NCBI GenBank assembly: GCA_035906055.1
Contig: JAMIFV010000016.1
Coordinates: 2,210-66,209 of the forward strand
Origin: Alphaproteobacteria bacterium
GTDB lineage: Bacteria; Pseudomonadota; Alphaproteobacteria; Rickettsiales; JABCZZ01
Direction: 5' to 3'
Length of the DNA: 64,000 nucleotides
Shown here: positions 16,269 to 30,262 of the stretch, one piece after another
How positions within the stretch are numbered: position 1 is the stretch's first letter
Layout: each line of letters opens with the position of its first letter
Notes under the pieces: model-generated
What the model was told of the DNA's origin: nothing
The model's database searches: none
What the model saw: only the letters and a program-made list of their open reading frames with translations
Position numbers and translations under genes: made by a program

Positions 16269-16421
16269 AAAAAGTCTGCTGTGCCCGGCTGCAAATCACA
16301 TTTTCTTGCGCTGCGCTGCGTATGCACCCCTTAAGCCATTGAACATTGGGGGCAGAACTGGTATGGCTCAAAAGCCTGCCTGTCGGGCTGTCCGTAATGT
16401 ATTCTACCTTTAGGCCCGCCT

Positions 16422-17687
16422 ATGCTGACCCACACGCGCGATGCAGAAACCAAGCTGGTTGACACCATGAACGGGCTTGCCGACGAGGCTCCCAGCTGGC
16501 GCGGTGTGTATTTCCGTTTTGAGCAACTGCTGGAGCAATACCGCAGCGACTACCAGATACAGATAGCGGTCAACCTGCTCAACGACCTGCTTACCACCAA
16601 TCAGGGCGGGGTGTTCGTCTGCTATGACCGCAGCATTATTCTGCTGTGCCGCAATGTGACGCGCAACAAATTGGAAAAGGCCATATTCCAGTTGCGCTAC
16701 CTGTTCATGGACGATCCGCTGGCTTATGACGCATCCGGCGATGAGAATCCAAATTTCTGCCGCGTGTATGATCTCGGCGTGGAATTCGCCGAGCTTTTCC
16801 AGTTATGCCGCAAGAAACATTCCCAGAGTGCGCAGGGCGACCACGCGAAAGAAAGCGCCGTGGCGTCCGTGCAGCCGCAGGGCAGGGAAGAGCCCGTGCA
16901 CAGCGCGGCAGCGGGGACGAAGCCGCCATCGGGCAAGCTGACGCTTACTCCCACGAAGCTCGCCCATATTGAACATGATCTTTACAAGGCCGACCTTAGC
17001 CGCGTATTCAGGCGCCAGCCTGTATGTGCTGTTACCATGGACATGAATACGCGCATGGTGTTCGACGAGTATTACATCCATATAGCGCATCTGCGACAGA
17101 TGTTGCATACCGACACGGACCTGCTGGGCAATCGCTGGCTGTTCAAATACCTGACCCAGTTGCTCGACGAACGCATGCTCGACATGCTGATGCTCACGCC
17201 GATGCGTTATTTCGATAAGCCGCTGAGCCTTAATTTCAATATTGAAACGCTGCTGTCGAAAAAATTCATCGAGTTCGACTCCACCATCAAGCTTATCATC
17301 AAGGTGCCGGTGGTCATTGAGATACAGGTGGGCGATGCTTTCTCCGACCTTGCAGGCTTCATGGCCGCGCGCAATATTCTTGAGCGCCTTGGCTACAAGA
17401 CCTGCCTCGACGGCGTAACCGGCTTCAGCATGATGCAGATAGACCGCGAAAAACTGGGGGTAGACCTTATCAAACTGCAATGGAATGCAGATCTGGAAGG
17501 GGATGCGAATAAAGTGGAGAACCGCCCCCTGAAGCGCGCCGTGGAGATTGCCGGAAGCGGGCGTGTTATACTCTGCCGCTGCGACACGAGGCAGGCAGTC
17601 AGCTATGGACAGGCCATGGGAATAAATTTATTTCAGGGCAGGTACATAGACCGGTTGGTTAATCCGAATCAGAAAGTAGAAAATTGA
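16422..17687 (+). CDS. Degenerate EAL-like protein (possible degenerate GGDEF-like N-terminal half)
   Basis: The C-terminal half follows EAL topology, but key motifs are altered: EYY for EAL, LDGVTG for DDFGTG, KLQ for KID, CRCDT for EGVE, QGRYI for QGY.F. The N-terminal half has a GGDEF-like beta-alpha-beta pattern with YDRS at the GGDEF position. Confidence 0.45.
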   Translation: MLTHTRDAETKLVDTMNGLADEAPSWRGVYFRFEQLLEQYRSDYQIQIAVNLLNDLLTTNQGGVFVCYDRSIILLCRNVTRNKLEKAIFQLRYLFMDDPLAYDASGDENPNFCRVYDLGVEFAELFQLCRKKHSQSAQGDHAKESAVASVQPQGREEPVHSAAAGTKPPSGKLTLTPTKLAHIEHDLYKADLSRVFRRQPVCAVTMDMNTRMVFDEYYIHIAHLRQMLHTDTDLLGNRWLFKYLTQLLDERMLDMLMLTPMRYFDKPLSLNFNIETLLSKKFIEFDSTIKLIIKVPVVIEIQVGDAFSDLAGFMAARNILERLGYKTCLDGVTGFSMMQIDREKLGVDLIKLQWNADLEGDANKVENRPLKRAVEIAGSGRVILCRCDTRQAVSYGQAMGINLFQGRYIDRLVNPNQKVEN

Positions 17688-18400
17688 TGGAATGGGCGAG
17701 TACGTTACAGGGGATCATCATTTCCGGCTTCATGGGGCTTGTTGCGGGCAACTTTGCCACCAGCCCCATTTTCCGCCTGCCGCGCAAAGAGTCGTTGTTT
17801 GGCCGCGACCCCTATTGCGGCGATTGCAACGCCATGCTGCAGCCCAGGGATCTTTTCCCGGTGCTGTCATGGCTTTCCACCAAAGGTAAATGCCGCTATT
17901 GCGGCGCGCCGGTGCCGGGCGCTTATACCTTCGCGGAGGCAGTAATCGCGGTATTGTTCGTGGTGTTCTTCCTGCAGCATGGTTTTTCGGAAACCTTCAT
18001 GCTGCTTTCCTTCAGCAGCGCCACGCTGATAGCGCTGGCGATGATGCTCTATATTGATAACTATTTTTCTGACCGGACGTTCGGCCTTGTGCTGGCGCTG
18101 GGGGCGGTATACCGGACGCTGACGGAGGCCACCATCTATGGCTTTGCCGGGGGCGTGTTCGCAGGCCTCATGCTGGGTGGGGCCATATGGAAACTCTCCA
18201 AAAAACCCATGGCGCGCGACTTCGGCGCTTTCCCGCCTTATATTAAGCTGCTGATAGCGTGCGCAGGGCTGCTGACCTTTCCGAAGTTCCTGGCCATCAT
18301 GCCGATATGCGCCTTTGCGGCGCTGGTAAGGGATCAGAAAAAATGGCTGCCGGAATATGCCATTATCGGCAGCACCATTGCCGTGCTGCTTGCAGCTTAA
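17687..18400 (+). CDS. PilD-type prepilin peptidase-like membrane protein
   Basis: N-terminal CGDC...CRYC Zn-finger segment with PVLSWLSTKGKCRYCGAPV, as in the DiS-P-DiS domain. Polytopic, with an IDNYFSD first-Asp region. Its ATG overlaps the upstream TGA (TGATG). Confidence 0.7.
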   Translation: MEWASTLQGIIISGFMGLVAGNFATSPIFRLPRKESLFGRDPYCGDCNAMLQPRDLFPVLSWLSTKGKCRYCGAPVPGAYTFAEAVIAVLFVVFFLQHGFSETFMLLSFSSATLIALAMMLYIDNYFSDRTFGLVLALGAVYRTLTEATIYGFAGGVFAGLMLGGAIWKLSKKPMARDFGAFPPYIKLLIACAGLLTFPKFLAIMPICAFAALVRDQKKWLPEYAIIGSTIAVLLAA

Positions 18401-18433
18401 ATAGTTCAGGGAAAATGCTTTCTCCGTGAAGAG

Positions 18434-19183
18434 TCATTCACACGTCACGACAAGCGTATAGTTGTCTTCCGCGTTGCCCAGCGTCACCGTGTTATGGCCA
18501 ATTGCCAGTGGCGCGATGTAAAGCCCATAACCACGCCCGATGATCGTATCGTTTACCTTGGTGCCGAAGCGGCTGCCGAGGTCCACTATTACCAGTGCGC
18601 CGTCTTCTATCGCTATCTCGCAGTGCTGACGTGATACCCTTAAGGGAGAGGGCTGCGCTGCGATGGACAGATGCACCATGTCGCGTTTGTTAGCTTCGCC
18701 GCCCTCCGGGTAACCGCCAATGCGGTAAGGCAGGTTGGCAAGGGGCACGCTCACCGGCTTGAATATGTCTTTTATGCGGTCGCCATGCGGGGCGATCCTG
18801 ATGGATTTAATGCTGGTGTTGATAGCCATTTCCGCCTTGGGTTTGGACTTCACCTTACCCAGTTTCATGCGTTCACCCATCATGGTGAACAAAGCCTGCA
18901 TGGACTGCGGCGCCTTATCGATAACGGCTTTGAATTCTTCCGGCGTAATGGCAACGATCGTGCAGGCTTCCAGCGCCCTGGCGGAATAAGGGCGAAGCGC
19001 AAGCGCATCAAAGATTGCCAGTTCACCGAATACTTCGTTCTCATTTACGGTGCGGATGGTGCTGGTCTGCCCACGGTCAGTCTGGTAAAGCTGCACTTTA
19101 CCCGCAATAAGGCAGTAAGCGGTATCAGGAGTATCGCCTTCCTGAAAAATCACAGCGTCTTTCTCAACGGTCTTCTGTGTCAT
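18434..19183 (-). CDS. Cyclic-nucleotide-binding domain plus FHA domain protein
   Basis: cNMP-binding features: VIFQEGDTPDTAYCLIAGKV and FGELAIF...RPYSARA. C-terminal FHA features: VSRQHCEIAIEDGALVIVDLGSRFGTKVND. Confidence 0.75.
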   Translation of the reverse strand: MTQKTVEKDAVIFQEGDTPDTAYCLIAGKVQLYQTDRGQTSTIRTVNENEVFGELAIFDALALRPYSARALEACTIVAITPEEFKAVIDKAPQSMQALFTMMGERMKLGKVKSKPKAEMAINTSIKSIRIAPHGDRIKDIFKPVSVPLANLPYRIGGYPEGGEANKRDMVHLSIAAQPSPLRVSRQHCEIAIEDGALVIVDLGSRFGTKVNDTIIGRGYGLYIAPLAIGHNTVTLGNAEDNYTLVVTCE

Positions 19184-19192
19184 GTGAAATGC

Positions 19193-21022
19193 TTATTCTA
19201 CTGTGACTGATTTTGCAAGATTTCTTGGCTGGTCGACGTCCGTTCCCTTGAGCACTGCCACCTGATACGCGATGAGCTGGATGGGCAGCGCATAGAGCAG
19301 CGGTGAGGAAAAGCTGTCGGTCGCAGGCATCTCAATGGAACAGGCGGTACTGGTGCCAAACTCGCGGCATCCCGCGGCGTCGCTGATGAGGATGATTTTG
19401 GCGCTGCGCGCGATCGCTTCCTGGATGTTGGAGGCGGTTTTCTCGAACTGCGTGCGGTCGCTGGTGGGGGCGATGGCAACCACGGGCACGTTTTCGTCCA
19501 GCAGCGCGATAGGGCCGTGTTTCAGTTCGCCTGCCGCATAGCCTTCGGCGTGGATATAGGATATCTCTTTTAGCTTCAGGGCGCCTTCCATGGCGATGAT
19601 GTTGCTGGTGCCACGACCAATATAAAGTATGTCGCGCGCTTCGAACAGTATCGCGGAGGCGGCAGTTGCCAGTTCAGGGTTGTGCAGTATCTCCACCATG
19701 CGCGAGGGCACTTCGGCAAGAGCCTGCTGCAATGAGCGGCATTGGTCAGCCGAACGCGTGCCTTTGGCTCTGGCAAGACCGATGGCAAGGCAGGCAAGCG
19801 TGGCAAGCTGCGTGGTGAAGCCCTTGGTGGACGCAACGCCTATCTCAGGGCCTGCGTGGGTCTGCATCACCACGTCCGCTTCGTTTGCCATGGTGCTTTC
19901 CGGTACGTTCACCACCGCGAGGCAGGTGTGTCCCGCCTGCCTCATGGTACGCATGGCGGCCAGCGTGTCCGCTGTTTCACCAGACTGCGAGATGAAGATG
20001 GCAAGCGTGTTCTTTGGCAGCGGGGTAGGGTGGTAGCGGTTTTCCGACGCGATATCCACATAAACCGGTACGTTCACCAGCTCCTGCATCCAGTAGCGCG
20101 CCACCTGCGCGGAGTAGTAGGACGTGCCGCAGGCGACAATGGAGATGGCCTGAATGTCATTAAGTCTGATGGGGAATGCGGGCAGCCTCACGTCGCCTTC
20201 GGCAATGTTGCACAGGCTTTGCACGATCTGGCCTATGACGGTGGGCTGCTCATGAATTTCTTTCAGCATGTAGTGGCGGAAGCCTTCCTTGCCGATGGCT
20301 TCGTTGGTGAGTGACGATATTTTTACTGCGCGCTCCACGCTCTGGCCGTTCTGGTCAAGGAAGCGGATGGTGCCCGGCGTAAGCACGGCGATATCGCCGT
20401 CTTCAAGGTAGCTGATGCGCGAGGTATAGGTGGAAAGGGCGATGGCGTCGGAACCGATATAGCATTCATCCTTGCCATAGCCCACTGCCAGCGGCGAACC
20501 TTTGCGCGCCGCAATGAGCAGTTCAGGGTGCTGGGCGAACACGATGCCGATCGCGAATGCGCCGTGCAGTTCCTTCACGGTCTTGATGACGGCCTGCTCT
20601 GGTGTGTCGCCGCTGGCCAGCGCCTGGTCGATAAGATGTACGATCACTTCCGTGTCGGTTTCGGACGTGAAAGTTACGCCCTTGCCGGTCAGCGCGGATT
20701 TGATCTCGCGGTAATTCTCGATAATGCCGTTATGCACCACGGCCACGCGTTGGGTGGCGTGGGGATGGGCATTTACTTCCGACGGTTTTCCATGGGTGGC
20801 CCAGCGCGTATGGCCGATGCCGGTGTGACCCTGCAGCGGATTTTTGGCGTGCAGTTGCTCTAATGCACCAAGCTTGCCTTCAGCGCGCAGGCGCGAGATG
20901 GCGCTGTCTTCGATAACAGCAATGCCAGCCGAGTCATAGCCACGATATTCCAGACGCTTAAGTCCGTCAATTAAACGCGCGGCTACACTGCTCTTGCCAA
21001 GGATGCCAACAATTCCACACAT
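19193..21022 (-). CDS. glmS: Glutamine--fructose-6-phosphate aminotransferase
   Basis: 609 aa with an MCGIVG N-terminal nucleophile, two SIS domains and a C-terminal KSVTVE. Confidence 0.95.
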   Translation of the reverse strand: MCGIVGILGKSSVAARLIDGLKRLEYRGYDSAGIAVIEDSAISRLRAEGKLGALEQLHAKNPLQGHTGIGHTRWATHGKPSEVNAHPHATQRVAVVHNGIIENYREIKSALTGKGVTFTSETDTEVIVHLIDQALASGDTPEQAVIKTVKELHGAFAIGIVFAQHPELLIAARKGSPLAVGYGKDECYIGSDAIALSTYTSRISYLEDGDIAVLTPGTIRFLDQNGQSVERAVKISSLTNEAIGKEGFRHYMLKEIHEQPTVIGQIVQSLCNIAEGDVRLPAFPIRLNDIQAISIVACGTSYYSAQVARYWMQELVNVPVYVDIASENRYHPTPLPKNTLAIFISQSGETADTLAAMRTMRQAGHTCLAVVNVPESTMANEADVVMQTHAGPEIGVASTKGFTTQLATLACLAIGLARAKGTRSADQCRSLQQALAEVPSRMVEILHNPELATAASAILFEARDILYIGRGTSNIIAMEGALKLKEISYIHAEGYAAGELKHGPIALLDENVPVVAIAPTSDRTQFEKTASNIQEAIARSAKIILISDAAGCREFGTSTACSIEMPATDSFSSPLLYALPIQLIAYQVAVLKGTDVDQPRNLAKSVTVE

Positions 21023-21168
21023 GAAGAACGCTCACTGAAAGGGGTGTAAAGGGGACAACACGTAACAGAAAATAGCGCAGGGTATAAGGTTTTACTTGAA
21101 ATAATTCCAGTCAATATTTAAACTGTGGATAGAAGTTGCAACATATTGAATTATAAAAATAAAAAATA

Positions 21169-21198: not shown

Positions 21199-21263
21199 CG
21201 AAAATAAGAAATCTGCGGTTGAAAAACCAGCAGCAAACAAACAAGGCTACGGGATGGGTATTT

Positions 21264-22031
21264 ATGTTGGACTTAAGCGAAACGGTGCCATCTACGGTGG
21301 TGCCACAGCACATACTTGTTAAAGCAATCAGGGAAGTCCCTACTTCCGTTTTCGATGCACAGAACGAAGAAGAAGTCCTCGCACTAAGGCACAGGCACAA
21401 GCGCCAGAACCGGCAGGCGCTCACCTTTGAATTTTCGCGTGACCCCGCGCTTCTGCATCAGTATTTTCGCCTGTATGAGTCGGAATGCCGCGTGGTGGAT
21501 GTGCCCCAGTTCTGCAATGCGGAAGAAGAATATAACCGCAAAGGGCATATCATTGTTGTGCGCAAGGGCAATCAGTGTATTGGCGGCGCACGAATCTCAG
21601 TGCGTTCCCCGCGCAATCCCGCGCCACTACCTCTGGAAATCGGCAATTTCAGGCTTGATAGCTTGTTTCCTGAACTCTGCGCAAAAGAGATGCATTATGC
21701 CGAGCTTTCCAGGCTGGTGCTGCTTCCGGAATTCCGCACCGGCGACATAACCCGTGAACTGTTCTATCACTTTTACCGCAAATCGCTGGCGATCGGCATT
21801 CATATGATGTTTGCCGCCGCCCCGCTTTCCAACGCGCGCATGTATCGTGTTAACTGCAAAGCGGTAGGGCTGCGGCAAACCACTATACATACCGAAATTG
21901 ACCTGCCGCCTTATCCGGGCTTTGAAGATGTGAAGGATTATCTGATCAGTGCGGTCATTGAGCAGAATGCAGTTGGGGACAATTTTGGATACTCGCCTGC
22001 GTTTGATGCTCTGGAGAGTATGGAAGCCTGA
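21264..22031 (+). CDS. OlsB-like / N-acyl amino acid synthase-like GNAT acyltransferase
   Basis: The pattern IGGARISV...AELSRLVLLPEFR...MMFAAAPL parallels the OlsB in this window (VGTYRLL...LELGRSCVDPNYR...LMFGCASF). First ATG is at 21264; the track ORF opens with TTG at 21219. Confidence 0.55.
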   Translation: MLDLSETVPSTVVPQHILVKAIREVPTSVFDAQNEEEVLALRHRHKRQNRQALTFEFSRDPALLHQYFRLYESECRVVDVPQFCNAEEEYNRKGHIIVVRKGNQCIGGARISVRSPRNPAPLPLEIGNFRLDSLFPELCAKEMHYAELSRLVLLPEFRTGDITRELFYHFYRKSLAIGIHMMFAAAPLSNARMYRVNCKAVGLRQTTIHTEIDLPPYPGFEDVKDYLISAVIEQNAVGDNFGYSPAFDALESMEA

Positions 22032-22070
22032 TTTCTGGTTGGCATCTCAACATGTGATACAGAGGCCGTT

Positions 22071-23075
22071 TTGAACACTTCAGTCGCTAAAGCCCCTCAA
22101 ACAACCGGTAACGGCAGCACAGATGCTCCAATAGGAAAATGTGAAGCCGATATCGCCTCCAAATTACTTTCAAAGGAAGAGATAAAATATTTTTCTCAGC
22201 TCAATGGCTGGAGATTTGCAGGCGCAGTGGCGCTTGAAGCAGTAACGCTTGCGCTTACAGTCTGGGTCTGCGAGGCTTACTGGAGCTTTCCGCTGTATGT
22301 CCTCGCGGTTATCATTATCGGTTCACGCCTGCATGCGTTGGCTATCCTCATGCATGACGCTGCGCATTTCCGTGCTTGCAGGAACCGCAAGGTGAATGAC
22401 ATTGTAGGAGAACTGCTTGCCTGGCCGGTTACCATGACGATGCAGGGATACCGCAACAGCCACTATTCGCATCACCGCGAACTCAACACCGAGAAGGATC
22501 TCGAATGGCTGAGGAAGATGGGGCAGGATGAGTTTAAATTTCCCAAGACCGGACTTGAGATTATCTGTGTGCTGGTTCAGTTCGCCACCGGCATCAAGGC
22601 CTATCAGGAATTGCGCGATGTACGAAAAGTGGAGGGGGCTGTTTATGTTTCCCCACGCCTGAAAAGAGTGCGCATGGCATGTTTTGCCGCATTGGTGGCG
22701 GCATCCGTCTATTTCACGTTCTGGAAAGGGCTGCTGCTCTATTGGGTGGTTCCGTTGTTCACCTCGTTGCTTTTTTTCGCTTATGTGCGCAGCGTCGCGG
22801 ATCATTTCTGCATCGAATATTCCCACCCCCTCAACCAGACGCGCACAGTGGTAGGGCCGTTCTGGGAAATGCACCTCTTCGCGCCGCATGGCATCAATTA
22901 TCATATTGAGCATCATATTTTCCCCGGTGTTCCCTGCCACCGTCTTGCAGAACTGCACCGCCACCTTATGACCAAGGAGACTTATGTACGTCATGCCCAT
23001 GTGACAAGGGGGTACGGTAAGTTACTGAAAGAATGTATGATTTCATCTTTGAGGGGTAATGCTCAGGCACTGTAG
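22071..23075 (+). CDS. Membrane fatty acid desaturase family protein
   Basis: Three histidine boxes, HDAAH, HYSHH and HIEHH, with TM segments. Apparent TTG start. Confidence 0.85.
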   Translation: MNTSVAKAPQTTGNGSTDAPIGKCEADIASKLLSKEEIKYFSQLNGWRFAGAVALEAVTLALTVWVCEAYWSFPLYVLAVIIIGSRLHALAILMHDAAHFRACRNRKVNDIVGELLAWPVTMTMQGYRNSHYSHHRELNTEKDLEWLRKMGQDEFKFPKTGLEIICVLVQFATGIKAYQELRDVRKVEGAVYVSPRLKRVRMACFAALVAASVYFTFWKGLLLYWVVPLFTSLLFFAYVRSVADHFCIEYSHPLNQTRTVVGPFWEMHLFAPHGINYHIEHHIFPGVPCHRLAELHRHLMTKETYVRHAHVTRGYGKLLKECMISSLRGNAQAL

Positions 23076-23207: not shown

Positions 23208-25256
23208 ATGGAGACAGTTATGCATAAGCATCTATTTGCATTGCTCGTAATGACGACGGCGCTAACGGCAGTTCCCGTGCAAGGGCGTGCTGCTGATGAA
23301 ACGCCTTCGCAGGATACGGATATGCTTAACCTGTCCCTGCAGCAATTGTCTGATATCGAAGTGACCTCCGTATCCAAACGTTCGGAAAAAGCTTCGCAGG
23401 CCGCTGCGGCTATTTATGTTATCACGCAGGAAGACATCAGGCGTTCGGGATTGGAAAATGTGCCAGAACTGCTACGCATGGTGCCCGGTCTTCAGGTGGC
23501 TAAATCCGGCTCACAGAACTGGGTGGTGACCTCGCGCGGCTTCGCCAGCCAGTTCGCCAATAAGCTGTTGGTGCTGATAGACGGCAGGACGGTATACACC
23601 CCGGTATTCTCAGGCGTGTTTTGGGATTCCCACAACCTGATGCTTGAGGACATCGAGCGCATTGAGGTGATTCGTGGCCCGGGCGCCACTTTGTGGGGGG
23701 CAAATGCCGTAAACGGTGTGATCAACATTATTACCAAGAACGCAAAAGACACGCAGGGCAGTCTGGTTTCGGCAGGTGCGGGCAATCAGCAGCGTGCCAA
23801 GGCAGCTGGCCGTTATGGCGGCCAGCAGGGCGAGATGTCATACCGTGCCTATGCACAATACGTTAACCATGGCGAAGAAAAGCTGCTTTCAGGCGCTGAG
23901 GCCAATGATGATTGGTATAACATGCAGGGCGGCTTCCGCTTTGACTGGAATACTTCTGAAAAAGAACAGAAGACCCTTCAGGGCGATGTGTATAAAGCAC
24001 GCGAAGGCGCCAAGCGCTATCTACCGGTGACGTCTGCCGTTTCCTCCAGTTTCGGTCGTGAGGTAGACGATCGTGACAGCGCCAGCGGCGCTAACATCCT
24101 CGGGCGTTGGAAACATGAATTGAACAAGGGGTCTGATATCTCGCTACAGGCGTATTATGACGATGTGCGCAGGGATTTCGGTGAAGTGGGCGCAAGCATG
24201 CACACGCAAACCGTTGACATGGATTTCCAGCATAATTTAAAGTTGAGCCAGCGCCACGATATTACCTGGGGTATTGGCTACCGTTTTATTCGCAGCGGCT
24301 ATACGAACAGCTTTTACATTGGCTACGTGCCGGAAGACTTCAATTCCAATCTCTTCAGCAGTTTTATCCAGGATAAAGTAACACTAATTCCTGACGAGCT
24401 TTATTTTACATTCGGTACCAAGCTTGAGCATAACGGCTTCAGCGGGCTGGAATATGAACCCAGCGCACGTATGGCGTGGACGCCTACCGGCAACCAGACC
24501 ATATGGGCTTCCGTGTCGCGTTCCATTCGTGCGAAAACCCAGTCCGATGAGAATCTGCGGCTGGTGGCGGCGGGCTTTGCCACGCCCTCGCCGTATAACG
24601 TGATTGCCGACAGCACGTTGCTGGTGCAGGAGGGCGATTATGGCACCGAATCGGAAGAGGTGATAGCCTATGAGCTGGGTTACCGTATTCAGCCGGTTCC
24701 AAACGTATCGGTGGATATGACCGCCTTCGTGAATGAATACAAACGTCTTGCGTCATTCTCCTATGGCGACGCCACGCTGAAGAATGATCCTTTCCTTGGC
24801 GATTATCTGTATCAGCCGCTCATCAGTGAGAATAACAGCCACGGCGAAACGCACGGCTTTGAAGCCGCCGCCACGTGGGAGGTCACTCCCAGTGTAAAGC
24901 TGAGCGGCGGGTATACGCTGTTCTATTCAAACCTGAAGATCACGGGCGCAAGCCTCGTGACGGCAGAAGGCACAAGCCCTACCCAGCAGATTAATTTCAG
25001 GTCGTATATGGACCTGCCCTACGACTTCCAGTGGGATAACATGCTCTATATCGTCGATCCGGTTCCGGGTAAGGGCGTCAAGTCCTATACCCGTTATGAT
25101 ACACGCATCGGCTGGGTGCCCATACAGGGGCTGGACTTGAGCATAGTAGGCCAGAATCTTCTGGAAACCGATCATCAGGAATATAGCGGATTTCTCTACC
25201 AGGACGCTGAAAAGATCGGTAGAAGCGTGTTCGCCAAAGTCACAGCCAGGTTCTAG
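23208..25256 (+). CDS. TonB-dependent outer-membrane receptor
   Basis: Signal peptide and plug motifs (IEVTSVSKRSEK, AAAIYVITQEDIRRSG, IERIEVIRGPGATLWGANAVNGVINIITK). C-terminal aromatic residue (ARF). Confidence 0.9.
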   Translation: METVMHKHLFALLVMTTALTAVPVQGRAADETPSQDTDMLNLSLQQLSDIEVTSVSKRSEKASQAAAAIYVITQEDIRRSGLENVPELLRMVPGLQVAKSGSQNWVVTSRGFASQFANKLLVLIDGRTVYTPVFSGVFWDSHNLMLEDIERIEVIRGPGATLWGANAVNGVINIITKNAKDTQGSLVSAGAGNQQRAKAAGRYGGQQGEMSYRAYAQYVNHGEEKLLSGAEANDDWYNMQGGFRFDWNTSEKEQKTLQGDVYKAREGAKRYLPVTSAVSSSFGREVDDRDSASGANILGRWKHELNKGSDISLQAYYDDVRRDFGEVGASMHTQTVDMDFQHNLKLSQRHDITWGIGYRFIRSGYTNSFYIGYVPEDFNSNLFSSFIQDKVTLIPDELYFTFGTKLEHNGFSGLEYEPSARMAWTPTGNQTIWASVSRSIRAKTQSDENLRLVAAGFATPSPYNVIADSTLLVQEGDYGTESEEVIAYELGYRIQPVPNVSVDMTAFVNEYKRLASFSYGDATLKNDPFLGDYLYQPLISENNSHGETHGFEAAATWEVTPSVKLSGGYTLFYSNLKITGASLVTAEGTSPTQQINFRSYMDLPYDFQWDNMLYIVDPVPGKGVKSYTRYDTRIGWVPIQGLDLSIVGQNLLETDHQEYSGFLYQDAEKIGRSVFAKVTARF

Positions 25257-25270
25257 GGAAAGTCAGCATC

Positions 25271-25885
25271 GTGTCATACGCACATAAACATGGCTGGTCT
25301 GCATGTCTGCGCGAAACGGTTTCACGCGCGGGCCGGATGCTGTGCGCCATGTCGCTGCTCGTGCTGGTGTCGTTTTCCAGCACCGATGCGCAGGACGCCA
25401 GCGCCCTCAAGGTTGCCAAGGTAAAAGCGGCATTCCTCTATAACTTCATCAAGTTCGTGGAATGGCCGCAGCGCTCTCCTGCCGACACCCAGAAAGCTAC
25501 CATCTGCATCGCAGGCAGCCATCCGTTCGAGAATGCGCTGGATACGCTTAAATCGCAGCTTGCAGGCAAAATAGAACTTACCATAGCCATGAATGCGGAT
25601 GCCTCTGCACTTGGAAACTGCAATATCCTGTTCATCGGCACGGGCGCGCCCGACAGCATCGCCGAATTCATATCGCAGGCGAAGAAGCAGAATGTGCTCA
25701 CCGTAAGCGAAAGCAATGACTTTGCTGACAAGGGCGGCGTAATAGAAATGAAGACGGTGGAAAAGGCGATCGGCCTGTTCTCCTCGAACAAGATCAACCT
25801 CAGGGTCAACCTGAAGGCGGCGGAGGCTTCGTCACTGCGCATCAACGCGCAGCTGCTTGAGATCGCCGCGGAGGTAATCAAATGA
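25271..25885 (+). CDS. YfiR/DUF4154-like periplasmic protein
   Basis: VKAAFLYNFIKFVEWP motif plus a signal-like N-terminus. Start uncertain (GTG at 25271 or a later ATG). Confidence 0.7.
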   Translation: MSYAHKHGWSACLRETVSRAGRMLCAMSLLVLVSFSSTDAQDASALKVAKVKAAFLYNFIKFVEWPQRSPADTQKATICIAGSHPFENALDTLKSQLAGKIELTIAMNADASALGNCNILFIGTGAPDSIAEFISQAKKQNVLTVSESNDFADKGGVIEMKTVEKAIGLFSSNKINLRVNLKAAEASSLRINAQLLEIAAEVIK

Positions 25886-25903: not shown

Positions 25904-27415
25904 GTGTTTTCTAGCGGTTCGATAAAGCAGCGCCTTACCCTGCTTATTACCGCCGTCAGCGCCATTGCGGTGCTGCTGACCACGCTCGCGCTGACATTCA
26001 TCGACGTTTACAACCTCAAGGGCAACCTTGTGTCGGAGCTTGAGGTTACTGCCAAGGTGGTCGGCGAGCGCAACAAGGCGTTTATCAGCTTCGGTGAAGT
26101 GGAGCTGGCGCATGACAACCTGAAGATATTCACCAGCAAGCCCTCGATTGTGCTGGCATGCCTTTATAACGATCAGGGAAAGGTGTTTGCCGGTTACGCA
26201 CCTGACAATCACGATGAAACCTATGCATTCTGCCCGTCGGTGACGGATGCTCCTTCCACCGTAAAAAAAGGCAATGTGCGTTACGTCCATCAGCTCGATA
26301 GCGGCAACCTGCCGGTGGGGTATATCCTCATGGAATCCGACCTGAAGGAAATACCCGACTATATCAGCAGGCAGGTGGTGATAGCGTTACTGGTGGTCGT
26401 CGTGTTCAGCGGTGTGGCTTATGGCTTCGCATTGGCCGTGCAGCGCAGCATCTCCGGTCCGATTCTCGGTCTTGCCGATACGGCACGCAGGGTATCCAAC
26501 CAGAAAGACTACGCGTTACGCGCCGAGCAGGGGGGGGCTGAGAGTTCGGACGAAATGCGCACGCTTGTGGCTGCGTTCAATTCCATGCTTGATGAGATAC
26601 AGACGCGTGACCACCAGCTCCAGCGCAAGAATGAGGAACTGGGCAAAGCCAAGGAATTCGCGGAAGGCGCCAACCGCGCCAAATCGCATTTCCTTGCTAA
26701 TATCAGCCATGAACTGCGCACGCCCCTGAATGCTATTATCGGATTCTCGTCCATTCTCATCAATCAGCTTTTCGGCCCGCTGGGGCATGCCAAATATGGC
26801 GAGTATTCCAAGGACATCAACGAAGCGGGTGTGCACCTGCTCGATATCATCAACGATATTCTCGACCTTTCCAAGGCCGAAGCGGGCAGGTTGCAGATGG
26901 TGTTTGAGGACGTGTTCATCGAGCGCGCCATTAATAAGTGCATCTCTATTACCTCGGAACGCTCTTCGGAAGCAGGCGTTACTATCAGTACGGATATTCC
27001 CCGGGGGCTGCCACCTATCATGGCTGACCGCCTGCGCTTTATCCAGATCATGCTCAACGTGCTTTCCAACGCGGTTAAATTTACGCCCAGAGGCGGAAGC
27101 GTGCATATTACGGTCAATACGCAGTCACGCGGCAGCCACGTGACGGACTTCGTCATCAGCGTGCGTGATACCGGCATCGGCATGTCGCAGGAGCATATTG
27201 AGAAGGCGTTCCAGAGTTTCGGCCAGATCGATAGCGACCTCAACCGCAAATACGAAGGCACCGGCCTCGGCCTGCCGCTCACCAAGAAGCTGGTGGACCT
27301 GCATCATGGCAGCATACGCATCCAGAGTGAGCTCAATGTCGGCACGATGGTGGAATTGCATTTTCTTGCCAATCCCGTGCCCGTGAACGACCTGATCGAC
27401 CGCGGCCCGATTTGA
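25904..27415 (+). CDS. Sensor histidine kinase (two TM segments, HAMP, HisKA, HATPase)
   Basis: H-box SHELRTPLNAIIGFS and G-boxes DTGIGM and GTGLGLPLTKKLV. No response regulator gene is adjacent. Confidence 0.85.
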   Translation: MFSSGSIKQRLTLLITAVSAIAVLLTTLALTFIDVYNLKGNLVSELEVTAKVVGERNKAFISFGEVELAHDNLKIFTSKPSIVLACLYNDQGKVFAGYAPDNHDETYAFCPSVTDAPSTVKKGNVRYVHQLDSGNLPVGYILMESDLKEIPDYISRQVVIALLVVVVFSGVAYGFALAVQRSISGPILGLADTARRVSNQKDYALRAEQGGAESSDEMRTLVAAFNSMLDEIQTRDHQLQRKNEELGKAKEFAEGANRAKSHFLANISHELRTPLNAIIGFSSILINQLFGPLGHAKYGEYSKDINEAGVHLLDIINDILDLSKAEAGRLQMVFEDVFIERAINKCISITSERSSEAGVTISTDIPRGLPPIMADRLRFIQIMLNVLSNAVKFTPRGGSVHITVNTQSRGSHVTDFVISVRDTGIGMSQEHIEKAFQSFGQIDSDLNRKYEGTGLGLPLTKKLVDLHHGSIRIQSELNVGTMVELHFLANPVPVNDLIDRGPI

Positions 27416-28244: not shown

Positions 28245-29021
28245 CTATGCCGTGCGATAGAGATTCGGCAGCATCTCAACGAACGGCTTTTCTATCTGCT
28301 GGCGGCAATACTGCGCCAGTTCTTTGCGCGACGCGAACCGGCTGCCGGTAACCGCTTCGTGGAATACCAGCGTCACATGCGCGCTTTTATGCTTCAGGAA
28401 CGCGGCGATATGTGGGAAAAAGAACGCGTCGCCATACCAGCCCACAACAGGCAACGCCGCTTCATCGAGCGGCTTGCCATTGAAATGCGTATAGACGACG
28501 GAAAGCGGTTGTACGGCTACATCGCCGGAGTCGGCCAGGCTGAAGAACGAGGACTTGAACGGCAGCATGCTTCTGCCTTCATTGGTGGTGCCTTCGGGAA
28601 ACAGGCTGATGACCTCGCCGCCTATGCGCGCTTCTTCCAGCAGCTTTTTATTTTCCAGCGTTTTGCTCGGGCGGCGGTCGATGAACACGCAGCCAGCCAT
28701 TGCGCATAACGTCCCGATCACCGGCCAGCCCGCGATCTCGCTTTTAGGAGTGAAGGCGGCGGGCACGATCTTGCCGATGGCGAACAGGTCAAGGTAAGAG
28801 AAGTGGTTGGAAACCAGCAGCAGCGGGCGCTCTGCCGATAATGCGCCCTTTACGCTCACACGCAGGCCCACGATTACGCAGCCCGTGGCAAACGACAGGC
28901 ACATGATGCGGCGATTGAGGCGCCGCAGCCCTAGCAGGCTGCAGATGCCCATCGCGCACAGCGTCATGAGCACGCACAGTATGACCAGTGGCGCTTTGAG
29001 GATGAAGCGGATGTACTGCAT
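28245..29021 (-). CDS. olsA: Lyso-ornithine lipid O-acyltransferase / 1-acyl-glycerol-3-phosphate acyltransferase family
   Basis: LLVSNHFSYLDL (HX4D-type box) and FPEGTTNEGRS. The ATG at 29021 overlaps the olsB stop (TAATG). The track ORF extends to 29117. Confidence 0.8.
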   Translation of the reverse strand: MQYIRFILKAPLVILCVLMTLCAMGICSLLGLRRLNRRIMCLSFATGCVIVGLRVSVKGALSAERPLLLVSNHFSYLDLFAIGKIVPAAFTPKSEIAGWPVIGTLCAMAGCVFIDRRPSKTLENKKLLEEARIGGEVISLFPEGTTNEGRSMLPFKSSFFSLADSGDVAVQPLSVVYTHFNGKPLDEAALPVVGWYGDAFFFPHIAAFLKHKSAHVTLVFHEAVTGSRFASRKELAQYCRQQIEKPFVEMLPNLYRTA

Positions 29022-29842
29022 TATTCGTCGGTGGTGGCGCGCGCCGTGTAGCGCTGGGAATAGCGGTCGGTGAGCAGGTCGGTCTTCACGATAATGCCCA
29101 CGTCTATGGTCTTGCAATGCGGGTCGATCACCGCGCCATGGCCGATATAGCCGCCCACACGCAGGTAACCTTTGATAAGCGCGGGTAACGAGGCAAACGC
29201 ACGCTTTTCGTTGATGTCTTCCTTGGGCACCAGGTTCATTTCGATATACTGGCCGGGCAGGGCCTTGCTGCGCATTTCCTCTGGTGCAAGATGGTAATGG
29301 TGCAGGTAGGAAAGCGGCATTTTATGCGCCTGCGGGTCGATGCCGAAAAAGCTGGCGCAACCGAACATGAGCTGTACGTTATACTGGGTTACATAGGCGC
29401 CGATGCCGCGCCACAGCAATGTCATCACAGCGCGGTTGCGGTAATTGGGGTCCACGCAGGAACGGCCAAGCTCCAGAAGTTCGCCCTTCATGCGCTTGAT
29501 GGCGGAAATATCGAATTCACTTTCACTGTAGAACGACGGAAGGTCCCGCAGCGCGCTGCGGCGCAGCAGGCGGTACGTGCCTACTACCTGTCCCGATTCC
29601 GCAGGAAGATCATAATCGCGCACCAGCAGGTGGTCGCAATAATCGTCGAACTGGTCGGAGTCGCGCCCGGTGCGTTTGGCTTCCTCAGAGGGAATGCCGC
29701 CCATCTCGTCAAAAAAGATGCGGTAACGCAGTTCCTGCGACCAGCGGATCTCTTCCGGCTTAGTGGCGATATGCACAGCGAGGTTGCCTGCGCGAATTTC
29801 GCCCCATCCTTCGATATTCTTCTTTTTAGCCAGGTTGTTCAT
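29021..29842 (-). CDS. olsB: Ornithine lipid N-acyltransferase (hemolysin-like GNAT)
   Basis: 273 aa. TYRLLRRS...FYSESEFDI...LELGRSCVDPNYRNR...LMFGCASF. Confidence 0.8.
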   Translation of the reverse strand: MNNLAKKKNIEGWGEIRAGNLAVHIATKPEEIRWSQELRYRIFFDEMGGIPSEEAKRTGRDSDQFDDYCDHLLVRDYDLPAESGQVVGTYRLLRRSALRDLPSFYSESEFDISAIKRMKGELLELGRSCVDPNYRNRAVMTLLWRGIGAYVTQYNVQLMFGCASFFGIDPQAHKMPLSYLHHYHLAPEEMRSKALPGQYIEMNLVPKEDINEKRAFASLPALIKGYLRVGGYIGHGAVIDPHCKTIDVGIIVKTDLLTDRYSQRYTARATTDE

Positions 29843-29845
29843 GCA

Positions 29846-30262
29846 TCAACGTTTGTTTTTAAGCGGCACACAGTATAGTTCCAGCCTGTGGTCCACCAGT
29901 TCATAGCCCAGCGATTCGGCGATTTCTTTTTGCAGGCGTTCGATCTCGTCGTTGCTGAACTCGATTACCTTGCCATTTTTTACATCGATCAGGTGGTCAT
30001 GGTGCACGTCACCGGATTCTTCATAGCGCGCACGCCCGTCCCCGAAATCATGCTTCTCGATGATGCCGGATTCCTCAAAAAGGCGCACCGTGCGGTAGAC
30101 CGTGGCAATGCTGATCTTGGGGTCAAGCTTGTGTGCCCGGCTGTGAAGCATTTCCACATCAGGATGGTCGTCAGACTCCGAGAGCACGCGGGCGATGATC
30201 CGGCGCTGCCCGGTGATCTTAAGGCCGGTTTCGGCACATTTCAGTTCAATACGTGATGGCAT
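29846..30262 (-). CDS. irr: Fur-family regulator, Irr-like
   Basis: ISIATVYRTVRLFEESGII, HHDHLIDVKNGKVIEF and DHRLELYCVPL. Its stop lies 3 nt before the olsB ATG. Confidence 0.8.
   Translation of the reverse strand: MPSRIELKCAETGLKITGQRRIIARVLSESDDHPDVEMLHSRAHKLDPKISIATVYRTVRLFEESGIIEKHDFGDGRARYEESGDVHHDHLIDVKNGKVIEFSNDEIERLQKEIAESLGYELVDHRLELYCVPLKNKR

Follow-up and report, generated by a model that had tools for sequence, protein, structure and literature searches.

Linkage of a putative N-acyl amino acid synthase gene with TonB-dependent receptor, YfiR-like protein, and sensor histidine kinase genes

Gene layout and upstream DNA

The window, the whole 64,000-nucleotide stretch of DNA that was analyzed, carries the genes of a putative fatty-acyl amino acid synthase (ORF1), a predicted membrane oxygenase (ORF2), an outer-membrane receptor, a periplasmic protein, and a sensor kinase in one co-directional run, with a conserved block of DNA upstream and the ornithine-lipid genes of the same window further downstream. 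The features are as follows.

21077..21148, plus strand: conserved promoter/operator-like block 5′ of ORF1, detected with nhmmer and containing a σ70-like TTGAAA-17-TAAACT arrangement
[quoted passage not shown]
22071..23075, plus strand: ORF2, predicted membrane di-iron oxygenase, GntB-like and 334 residues long, of the FA_desaturase superfamily, from PF00487 and its His boxes
23208..25256, plus strand: TonB-dependent outer-membrane receptor of the TOL_0244 family with a Plug domain (NF053590, 664.8 bits against a cut-off of 645)
25271..25885, plus strand: YfiR-like periplasmic protein, DUF4154 (PF13689, 121 bits)
25904..27415, plus strand: sensor histidine kinase of the membrane, composed of a periplasmic CHASE8 domain of the YfiN type plus HAMP, HisKA, and HATPase domains (Pfam)
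28245..29842, minus strand: olsBA ornithine-lipid genes, 5 kb downstream

From ORF1 to the kinase gene, the intergenic gaps measure 39, 132, 14, and 18 bp, and a terminator-like site is predicted in none of them. A sequence-only reading of this DNA had described ORF1 and ORF2 as a same-strand pair 39 bp apart, in an AT-richer block followed by a TonB-dependent receptor and a sensor module. This layout is borne out: the ORF1–ORF2 gap is exactly 39 bp, the receptor, the YfiR-like gene, and the kinase gene follow, and the computed GC contents of ORF1 (0.517, z −1.9) and ORF2 (0.510, z −2.1) lie below the gene mean of 0.564 (standard deviation 0.025). The AT-richness of the two genes is real and modest, with a GC3 z-score of about −1.3. 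Since ORF1 is syntenic in relatives, recent horizontal acquisition is plausible for ORF2 only, and a GC deviation of ∼2 standard deviations is too weak to decide the matter.

The longest form of ORF1 begins at a TTG codon at 21219, and the stop codon ends at 22031. The ATG codon at 21264 (MLDLSE..) is the start that matches the N termini of the homologues, and the public gene call agrees (255 residues). ORF2 begins at the TTG codon at 22071, which is preceded by AGAGG and is the sole in-frame start upstream of the conserved region; the alignment to the homologue in locus L011 begins at residue 2.

An nhmmer model of the upstream block, built from six loci, places it upstream of the ORF1 homologues in the window and in L001, L003, L005, L020, and L026 (E values of 1e-13 to 1e-19). 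The match is weaker in L004 (E = 1.7e-5), where the neighboring gene is not glmS. The promoter-like block accompanies the synthase gene and not the neighboring glmS. RNAalifold predicts no RNA structure for the conserved block, and an Rfam scan returned zero RNA families throughout the window.

Family assignments of ORF1, ORF2, and the downstream module

ORF1 is probably an enzyme that makes a fatty-acyl amino acid, a prediction from profile matches and a modeled fold that passes no curated threshold. FeeM is its single Pfam match (21.8 bits, under the gathering score of 27), no NCBIfam model matches, and every curated family threshold is missed. The AF2 model, with pLDDT above 90 across residues 50–235, adopts a GNAT fold of the type found in FeeM and the acyl-homoserine-lactone (AHL) synthases. 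In a Foldseek search with this model, FeeM (2g0b) is the top PDB match (E = 2.6e-8) and LasI is third, and FeeM is barely ahead of the generic GNAT acetyltransferases, which rank 2–14 and score alike, with similar E values. The resemblance of ORF1 to LasI and TofI is confined to the general fold. A PDB sequence search with the ORF1-family profile gave nothing useful.

More consistent assignments emerge from a sample of 42 family members, in which FeeM is matched by 30 (best E = 2.8e-7), the exosortase-associated NAS model TIGR03694 by 19 (best E = 1.2e-8), and Acetyltransf_5 likewise by 19, all of these matches being weak. Acetyltransf_1 is matched by only three members, and Autoind_synth (PF00765) by none at E ≤ 0.01. 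On the last count, together with the fold-level nature of the LasI and TofI likeness, a LuxI-type AHL synthase is not supported as an identity for ORF1, and neither is the LuxI-like enzyme considered in the sequence-only reading. A word-index homology search from ORF1 yielded 14 proteins, and the 42-sequence profile retrieved nothing more from a word-index search. A full profile scan returned ∼700 clusters at 50% identity, which makes this a family of modest size and not an ultra-rare one; the plasmid collection holds no relative of ORF1.

ORF1 had been said to share the motif layout of the OlsB encoded in the same window. The true OlsB scores 117.9 bits on PF13444 (Acetyltransf_5) and 287 bits on the OlsB model, whereas ORF1 matches neither model, and BLASTP of ORF1 against this OlsB finds nothing significant. 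With the ORF1-family profile, hhalign aligns ORF1 residues 87–188 to OlsB residues 62–165 (E = 3e-5, probability 73.5%). The shared layout thus holds at the profile level, over the motif region and the catalytic core, and not at the level of pairwise sequence. Like the OlsB/OlsA pathway in this remote homology, ORF1 differs from it in having no Acetyltransf_5 match and, by the gene list of the window, no adjoining PlsC-type or OlsA-type O-acyltransferase, and its assignment as an OlsB ornithine N-acyltransferase was rejected on these grounds. Its lineage and its cluster are separate from those of the olsBA genes, in agreement with the earlier description of ORF1 as distinct from OlsB.

The closest known enzymes are the FeeM/NAS-type synthases, with which ORF1 shares the GNAT fold, FeeM as best structural match, a length of ∼250 residues, a conserved E-x-S-R core motif, weak but consistent profile matches across the family, and envelope and signaling genes as neighbors. 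It differs in falling under all curated thresholds and in forming its own subfamily. The exosortase-linked NAS enzymes differ in context, ORF1 having the TonB-dependent receptor, the YfiR-like protein, and the kinase as its linked genes instead.

ORF2 belongs to the membrane fatty acid desaturase superfamily, scoring 123.7 bits on PF00487 against a gathering score of 29.7. The three His boxes described earlier are present, HDAAH at residue 95, HYSHH at 131, and HIEHH at 278, and two hydrophobic hairpins (∼48–96 and 200–243) give a four-helix enzyme. The eight box histidines, His245, and His296 are invariant in 24 homologues. The AF2 model (pLDDT 90) has a desaturase-like subunit, AlkB, and SCD1 as structural matches; a PDB sequence search with ORF2 found nothing.

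Within this superfamily, the best NCBIfam model for ORF2 is GntB (NF041365), the transmembrane L-arginine γ-hydroxylase of guanitoxin biosynthesis. GntB is likewise a membrane enzyme of the FA_desaturase superfamily, and its model is the best one, at near full length, for ORF2 and all tested relatives, with subfamily scores of 135–160 bits against 21–37 bits for the DesA and DesB models. ORF2 itself scores 135.3 bits on GntB, 28.7 bits on DesB, and 21.3 bits on DesA. Two identities are not supported: that of a bona fide acyl-lipid or acyl-CoA desaturase, the DesA and DesB scores being far under their cut-offs of 500, and that of a GntB equivalog, the GntB score being far under the equivalog cut-off of 380 and the gnt pathway genes being absent from the neighborhood. 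Because the nearest curated model is GntB and not a true fatty acid desaturase, hydroxylation by ORF2 is predicted to be at least as likely as desaturation. The earlier assignment as a desaturase therefore stands for the superfamily, and the unsaturated product that had been expected of it is not the favored prediction. Ornithine lipids are tailored by the hydroxylases OlsC, OlsD, and OlsE; OlsE belongs to the FA_hydroxylase family, from which ORF2, a PF00487 protein, differs.

ORF2 is predicted to be an accessory tailoring enzyme and not a conserved partner of the synthase. Its homologues, at ∼48% identity, also occur as solitary genes in unrelated contexts, and for this reason the substrate of ORF2 may be a housekeeping lipid. 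An unannotated gene of 237 codons just upstream of the ORF2 homologue in L035 was tested as a hidden synthase and ruled out. The plasmid collection contains only distant relatives of ORF2, at ∼30% identity.

The three downstream genes follow the order of the NF053590–NF053592 module, in which NCBI curators treat the TOL_0244 receptor, a YfiR-like protein, and a kinase as a conserved unit, and the receptor model alone passes its cut-off. The YfiR-like protein scores 103.5 bits on NF053591 (TOL_0243 family; cut-off 125) and the kinase 162.4 bits on NF053592, “HK near YfiR-like” (cut-off 194). The CHASE8 domain of the kinase scores 31.6 bits against a threshold of 27; the kinase is not a hybrid, and no response regulator adjoins it or the cluster. 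The receptor has an N terminus weakly similar to those of siderophore and B12 receptors and no FecA-type N-terminal signaling domain in the Pfam results. No export transporter for a product was seen adjoining the cluster. A published function or ligand for the TOL_0244 receptor module was not found in the literature.

The module is reminiscent of YfiBNR (TpbB), with a YfiR-family DUF4154 protein, an inner-membrane sensor containing CHASE8 and HAMP domains, and an outer-membrane partner encoded alongside. In YfiN, the periplasmic domain is a CHASE8 domain (PMC8085984), and YfiN is controlled through the sequestration of YfiR by the outer-membrane partner (PMC4655355; PMC8085984). The main differences are that the outer-membrane partner is here a TonB-dependent receptor rather than the Pal-like lipoprotein YfiB, that the output is a histidine kinase rather than a diguanylate cyclase, and that a biosynthetic enzyme is attached.

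Conservation of the synthase–receptor linkage

Linkage was counted over 18 distinct ORF1-family loci with flanking DNA, from related, mostly uncultured Alphaproteobacteria-like metagenome-assembled genomes (MAGs). A scan of genome contigs gave four loci, and a metagenome scan with a narrower alignment gave 16, several of which were duplicates or too short.

A TOL_0244-type receptor gene lies within or adjoins the cluster of the ORF1 homologue in 16 of the 18 loci and is absent from L025 and L026. The YfiR-like protein is encoded beside the receptor in 13 loci and the CHASE8 histidine kinase in 11, whereas an ORF2-type gene is found in only three. The synthase and the receptor form the most persistent pair, found even where kinase or YfiR-like genes are missing (L008, L010, L004, L023, and L024); L008 and L010 lack both and retain the receptor only. 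Glycosyltransferase-like and epimerase-like ORFs, recognized by eye from N-terminal sequences, stand beside the synthase and receptor genes of these last two loci.

There is considerable variability in how the two genes are arranged. The linkage spans at least eight architectures, among them synthase and receptor on the same strand after glmS, convergent (L004 and L006) or divergent (L027) genes, a duplicated receptor (L007), an IS element between synthase and receptor (L024), and a receptor placed upstream (L021), and it persists down to ∼31% synthase identity. The identities of synthase and receptor to their counterparts in the window co-vary (Spearman 0.92 without L004 and 0.53 with it). 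Inherited synteny could account for part of the linkage, the loci being from related MAGs. Among the conserved links of the synthase, that to the receptor and sensor genes is the strongest and most informative, and this comparison speaks against the view that these genes are mere neighbors of an ORF1–ORF2 pair.

Tailoring genes vary more widely, and most ORF1-family loci have a synthase without any tailoring partner. In L001, a P450 gene takes the position of ORF2. In L012, the ORF2 homologue (55% identity) sits between the YfiR-like gene and the kinase gene, with gaps of 9 and 5 bp, and the stretch between synthase and receptor contains genes for a P450, an LCM methyltransferase, and a fusion of a haem-oxygenase-like part with a methyltransferase. 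Two genes of the FA_desaturase family come after the synthase in L027. L013, an Afipia MAG, has the gene of a true FeeM-family synthase clustered with those of a PAS-GGDEF-EAL protein and an ORF2 homologue; this FeeM protein has no significant profile match to the ORF1 family and belongs to a different NAS subfamily. ORF2-family and NAS genes thus occur together in L012, L027, and L013, in a different arrangement each time, so that the proposed pairing does recur in other genomes, contrary to what would have refuted it, while extending to few of the ORF1-family loci.

Proposed working of the cluster and its alternatives

The region from ORF1 to the kinase (21.08–27.4 kb) can be read as a single, variably tailored lipoamino-acid cluster whose product is tied to the receptor, the relay, and the kinase, likeliest as the ligand of the receptor; the case for this reading is about evenly balanced. 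From its fold and remote homology, ORF1 would be expected to acylate the amine of an amino acid, with acyl-ACP as the probable donor of the fatty acyl group, as in FeeM. The GntB-like oxygenase ORF2 would tailor this lipoamino acid or its amino-acid precursor. In relatives, the tailoring slot is empty or holds P450, methyltransferase, or second desaturase-type genes, and given this variable gene content, different lineages would make different variants of the product.

The amphiphilic product would then most likely be recognized by the TOL_0244 receptor, through binding or uptake at the outer membrane, and may in this way serve as the receptor's self-made ligand. We know of no TonB-dependent receptor that takes up simple lipoamino acids, which counts against this assignment. 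By analogy with YfiB, YfiR, and YfiN, the YfiR-like protein and the CHASE8 kinase would convert receptor occupancy, or ligand in the periplasm, into phosphorylation, with the receptor in the role of YfiB; the genes are observed to be linked, and the direction of signaling and the identity of the ligand are predicted. A more specific proposal, which is tentative and rather unlikely, is that the four-gene core of synthase, receptor, relay, and kinase is an undescribed cell-to-cell or autocrine signaling system, in which the receptor would recognize a self-made lipoamino acid, the YfiR-like repressor would be released, and tailoring would be lineage-specific. No paper linking these four components was found in the literature.

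Known systems share parts of this logic. LuxI/LuxR and LuxM/LuxN also place a small-molecule synthase beside its sensor, with the difference that ORF1 lacks a LuxI-family signature. In FecA-FecR-FecI, an outer-membrane TonB-dependent receptor likewise signals to an inner-membrane transducer; here the receptor lacks the FecA-type signaling domain, and the relay would run through a YfiR-like protein to a two-component kinase rather than through an anti-sigma factor. In gene content, the stieleriacine cluster of Stieleria maiorica is also alike: its NAS genes occur together with the gene of a putative fatty acid desaturase, for which modification of the N-acyl amino acid has been proposed, and stieleriacines affect community behavior (PMC7293339). 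That cluster resembles ORF1 and ORF2 in bringing together NAS and desaturase-type genes, and differs in being planctomycetal, in having four NAS genes and PEP-CTERM genes, and in having no TonB-dependent receptor/YfiR-like module.

The stieleriacine precedent (PMC7293339), the adjoining, co-directional placement of ORF1 and ORF2, and the co-occurrence of such genes in L012, L027, and L013 speak for a pathway of these two genes alone, leading to an unsaturated N-acyl amino acid or a membrane aminolipid, with the receptor and sensor genes as unrelated neighbors. This is unlikely, given how much rarer the ORF2-type gene is than the receptor across the loci, the position of the L012 homologue within the sensor operon, and the closeness of ORF2 to the GntB hydroxylase model rather than to the fatty acid desaturase models. 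Moreover, because no OlsA-like second acyltransferase lies beside ORF1 or ORF2, a two-tailed, membrane-forming aminolipid of the ornithine-lipid kind is not expected. The gene linkage itself would fit equally a lipid that is the output of the module and not its ligand: the module would sense an external nutrient or envelope stress and control ORF1, whose product would remodel the outer membrane or act as a surfactant. The operator-like block 5′ of ORF1, the responsiveness of YfiBNR to envelope stress (PMC8085984), and the glycosyltransferase-like and epimerase-like neighbors in L008 and L010 are in keeping with such an envelope lipid, which is nevertheless improbable, since synthase and receptor persist where the kinase and YfiR-like genes are missing, as fits a maker and its receptor better, and since the cluster has no linked response regulator.

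That the tailored acyl amino acid is a metallophore, chelating a metal and re-imported by its dedicated TonB-dependent receptor, is highly improbable. Siderophore loci typically pair a synthase with a receptor, chelating groups could arise through oxygenase tailoring, and the receptor N terminus bears its weak similarity to siderophore and B12 receptors, but a Fur-box scan upstream of ORF1 and of the receptor gene found nothing above background, so iron regulation is not supported. A periplasmic binding protein, an ABC importer, and a reductase are also absent from the cluster, most synthases have no tailoring partner, and what defines the receptor family in NCBIfam is that it is associated with YfiR-like proteins and kinases and not with siderophore uptake. 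It is very unlikely that ORF1 is another kind of GNAT enzyme, be it a LuxI-like AHL synthase or a protein or small-molecule acetyltransferase. Its sub-threshold FeeM score and the crowd of LasI and generic acetyltransferases just behind FeeM in the fold search would allow this, but family members match the FeeM, Acetyltransf_5, and exosortase-associated NAS models far more often than Autoind_synth or Acetyltransf_1, and the family profile aligns to the catalytic core of OlsB.

Expression of environmental DNA brought most bacterial long-chain N-acyl amino acids to light. To our knowledge, their natural role is still largely open, and the link to envelope systems that has been proposed for them has come without a mechanistic explanation. 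On the reading of a lipoamino-acid cluster tied to the receptor and kinase, both sides gain a testable partner from the link between synthase and module: the lipid becomes a candidate ligand of the sensor, and the TonB-dependent receptor a candidate receptor of the lipid. The swappable tailoring genes suggest that the chemistry of the signal would differ by lineage. Even with a purely regulatory link, the locus would still represent a lipoamino-acid gene cluster, new and compact, of uncultured Alphaproteobacteria-like bacteria.

The putative synthase and its adjoining oxygenase

The cluster and the ornithine-lipid-type genes of the window are arranged as follows.

21264-22031, + strand: ORF1, N-acyltransferase-like GNAT gene (the synthase)
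22071-23075, + strand: ORF2, three-His-box membrane oxygenase
23208-25256, + strand: TOL_0244 TonB-dependent receptor
25271-25885, + strand: YfiR-like protein
25904-27415, + strand: CHASE8 histidine kinase
28245-29117, - strand: olsA (Pfam/NCBIfam matches)
29021-29842, - strand: olsB (Pfam/NCBIfam matches)

The ORF table places ORF1 and ORF2 co-directionally within 21219-23075, where the sequence-only reading had put them, with a spacing of 39 bp that holds no terminator-like site. The three His boxes of ORF2 lie at residues 95 (HDAAH), 131 (HYSHH) and 278 (HIEHH); ORF2 also contains two hydrophobic hairpins. The longest form of ORF1 starts at TTG 21219, an alignment of 13 homologues favours ATG 21264 (“MLDLSE...”), and the public gene call P0001 is the identical ORF1 protein of 255 residues. 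ORF2 starts at TTG 22071, the sole in-frame start 5' of the conserved part, which is preceded by AGAGG; the alignment of its homologues begins at residue 2. The AT-richness perceived by eye is real but only mild: GC is 0.517 in ORF1 and 0.510 in ORF2, where genes average 0.564 (sd 0.025), which puts both ~2 sd low; GC3 is ~1.3 sd low.

The only Pfam match of ORF1 is FeeM, a synthase (NAS) of N-acyl amino acids, at 21.8 bits and thus under the gathering score of 27, and no NCBIfam model matches. ORF1 and the OlsB of the window are not significantly similar by BLASTP; a 42-member family profile pairs ORF1 residues 87-188 with OlsB residues 62-165 (hhalign E 3e-5, probability 73.5%). Because this alignment spans the motifs noted by eye (G..R, ELSR/ELGR, P.FR/P.YR and MF.A), the likeness is genuine remote homology, and the label of paralog falls away. 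The AlphaFold model of ORF1, built with the family alignment as input, has pLDDT >90 over residues 50-235; its best match in the PDB is FeeM (2g0b, E 2.6e-8), with LasI third. Scanning the profile against all 1.84 billion representatives gave 702 relatives at E <= 1e-3, 526 of them at E <= 1e-10. Among 42 sampled members, 30 match FeeM, 19 match Acetyltransf_5 and 19 match TIGR03694, the exosortase-associated NAS model, all weakly; none of the 42 matches the LuxI family, so that the LuxI-like enzyme once considered gains no support from sequence. The profile, fold and family-sample results thus make ORF1 a distinct, uncurated branch of the NAS/OlsB clade, with a predicted activity.

ORF2 clearly matches the FA_desaturase superfamily (PF00487, 123.7 bits). 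Its AlphaFold model (pLDDT 90) most resembles the desaturase-like subunit of the Ycf2-FtsHi complex (TM 0.65), followed by AlkB and SCD1, and all eight box histidines, H245 and H296 are invariant across 24 homologues. The nearest curated model for ORF2 and for every relative tested is GntB (135-160 bits, near full-length), a transmembrane enzyme whose product is gamma-hydroxy-L-arginine (bioRxiv 10.1101/2023.03.21.533663), whereas the fatty-acid desaturase models DesA/DesB reach just 21-37 bits. “Desaturase”, the reaction assumed in the sequence-only reading, is therefore a family label that predicts no reaction; hydroxylation, whether of the head group, of its precursor or of the chain, is at least as likely as desaturation. 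ORF2 is distinct from GntB itself, since the scores on the GntB model stay well short of the equivalog cut-off of 380. A 2025 review (PMC12371840) describes GntB as an alpha-ketoglutarate-dependent non-haem iron enzyme and the GntC study (the same preprint) as transmembrane; the NCBIfam GntB model aligns full-length to FA_desaturase-family proteins, and the description in the review looks inconsistent with the sequence family.

Constant partners and a variable tailoring slot

ORF1-family loci were gathered by exact-protein look-ups, a genome scan and a metagenome scan, and the window proteins were then mapped onto them by tblastn. With duplicates removed, 18 distinct loci had usable flanks. 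All loci (with handles such as L001, holding ORF1-family or ORF2-family relatives) derive from metagenome-assembled or unassembled data, some labelled “uncultured Rickettsiales” or Pseudomonadota by NCBI.

Genes found with an ORF1 homologue in the 18 loci
TOL_0244 TonB-dependent receptor: 16/18 (all but L025 and L026)
YfiR-like protein: 13/18
CHASE8 histidine kinase: 11/18
ORF2-type oxygenase: 3/18 (window, L012, L027)
P450: 2/18 (L001, L012)
LCM methyltransferase: 2/18 (L006, L012)
Second synthase: 1/18 (L006)

Pfam/NCBIfam matches bear out the receptor and sensor module read downstream of the pair. The window receptor exceeds the NCBI curated cut-off (664.8 vs 645 bits); the YfiR-like protein (DUF4154) and the kinase (CHASE8, HAMP, HisKA and HATPase domains) score just under their NCBIfam cut-offs, yet pass those of Pfam DUF4154 and CHASE8. 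The linkage of synthase and receptor survives many rearrangements. The 16 receptors, 40-62% identical to that of the window, adjoin or lie within the synthase cluster. A same-strand layout after glmS is found in the window, L001, L003, L005 and L009; synthase and receptor are convergent in L004 and L006 and divergent in L027, and the receptor is duplicated in L007 and upstream in L021. An IS-type integrase gene (rve) has come to lie between the two in L024 (11093-11899), a cluster that may be disrupted in that genome. L008 and L010 have the receptor alone, without YfiR-like gene or kinase, and L007 and L028 keep the linkage in unrelated housekeeping contexts. The identities of synthase and receptor to their counterparts in the window rise and fall together (Spearman 0.92 without L004, 0.53 with it). 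The receptor is absent from L025. In L026 (9929-12467), receptor and YfiR-like gene were not detected and the kinase directly follows the synthase, with glmS synteny otherwise kept; a natural deletion variant and a rearrangement are the two readings of this layout.

The pairing is not confined to the window, since ORF2-type genes also accompany NAS-type genes in L012, L027 and L013, but the standing of the oxygenase is that of an accessory tailoring gene and not of a core partner. L012 (1-9486) carries the cluster in its richest form, in the order synthase (C-terminus confirmed by translation), P450, LCM methyltransferase, haem-oxygenase-like di-iron/methyltransferase fusion, receptor, YfiR-like gene, ORF2 homologue (55% identity) and kinase, followed, as in L001, L003 and L005, by MarR, an NMT1_3 binding protein and an SDF symporter. 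In L027, two FA_desaturase-family genes follow the synthase, the second 40% identical to ORF2, and these genes are divergent from those for receptor, YfiR-like protein and kinase. L013 (3398-7984, Afipia sp. MAG GCA_016201045.1) has an ORF2 homologue (49% identity) near a synthase of the true FeeM family (157.9 bits) and a PAS-GGDEF-EAL protein, all within the tol-pal region, and is a second, independent cluster of lipoamino-acid synthase, GntB-like oxygenase and signalling protein. Further ORF2 homologues (~48% identity) are solitary in housekeeping contexts, and no synthase stands beside one of 38%. A P450 occupies the ORF2 position in L001, L006 has a second synthase besides an LCM methyltransferase, and the slot is empty in many loci (L003, L005, L007, L009, L028). 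In L006 (6831-8768), two divergently oriented ORF1-family paralogues adjoin the methyltransferase, with a convergent receptor and, on the opposite side, the genes for the YfiR-like protein and the kinase.

Upstream block and chromosomal surroundings

21077-21148, + strand: conserved block, ~70 nt in length, 5' of ORF1

The block reads GGTATAAGGTTTTnCTTGCnAA...CCAG...TGTGGATnAA...TAAGT, sigma-70-like hexamers included, and contains no RNA structure. It is kept in six syntenic loci and, as a weaker match, in L004, where the upstream neighbour is not glmS; the block therefore travels with the synthase gene, of which it is probably the promoter/operator. Ahead of it, 13359-21022 encodes an AsmA-family protein, an EAL-like protein, an A24_N_bact membrane protein, a cNMP-binding/FHA protein and glmS. 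This order recurs in L001, L003, L006 (inverted) and L026 and so anchors the cluster stably in the chromosome of this lineage. In longest-ORF calls, olsB and olsA share 97 bp; both score under the NCBIfam equivalog cut-offs (287 vs 320 and 176 vs 300 bits), yet these are clearly their best matches; a Fur-family gene follows (29846-30262).

A proposed lipid maker and its receptor

From the observed gene content, linkage, folds and variable tailoring slot, a pathway can be proposed in which ORF1 would join an acyl group, supplied by a carrier, to an amino acid and so form a lipoamino acid, and ORF2 would oxidise this product or its amino-acid precursor. The resulting lipid would be functionally tied to the receptor. 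Since synthase and receptor are the most persistent pair, even in loci without the kinase, a maker-and-receptor relation is favoured, with the lipid as the receptor's putative ligand. In YfiN, CHASE8 forms the periplasmic domain (PMC8085984), and within YfiBNR the sequestration of YfiR by an outer-membrane partner sets YfiN free (PMC4655355). By analogy, the ligand-loaded receptor, or the imported ligand, would strip the YfiR-like protein from the kinase.

Conversely, the lipid could be the output of the sensor, acting as a surfactant or in envelope remodelling, a reading that the persistence of synthase with receptor where the kinase is missing makes less attractive. ORF1 and ORF2 as a stand-alone two-gene pathway, as originally proposed, would fit the recurrence of the pair but not the accessory standing of the oxygenase. 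A metallophore is unlikely, as a Fur-like site, an importer and a reductase are all absent. ORF1 might also be a GNAT enzyme other than an NAS: generic GNAT acetyltransferases match its model almost as well as FeeM does, but the combined profile, fold and family results place it with the NAS/OlsB enzymes. The maker-and-receptor relation remains the preferred reading.

NAS enzymes and their link to envelope systems are already known or proposed, as is a cluster of NAS and desaturase, that of the stieleriacines (PMC7293339), and the trio of receptor, YfiR-like protein and kinase is recognised in NCBIfam. No publication was found that joins an N-acyl amino acid with a TonB-dependent receptor, or a YfiR-like protein with a TonB-dependent one; the literature naming both YfiR and TonB-dependent is unrelated, judging by titles and abstracts. 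The locus is of interest because it supplies testable partners for two poorly understood components.
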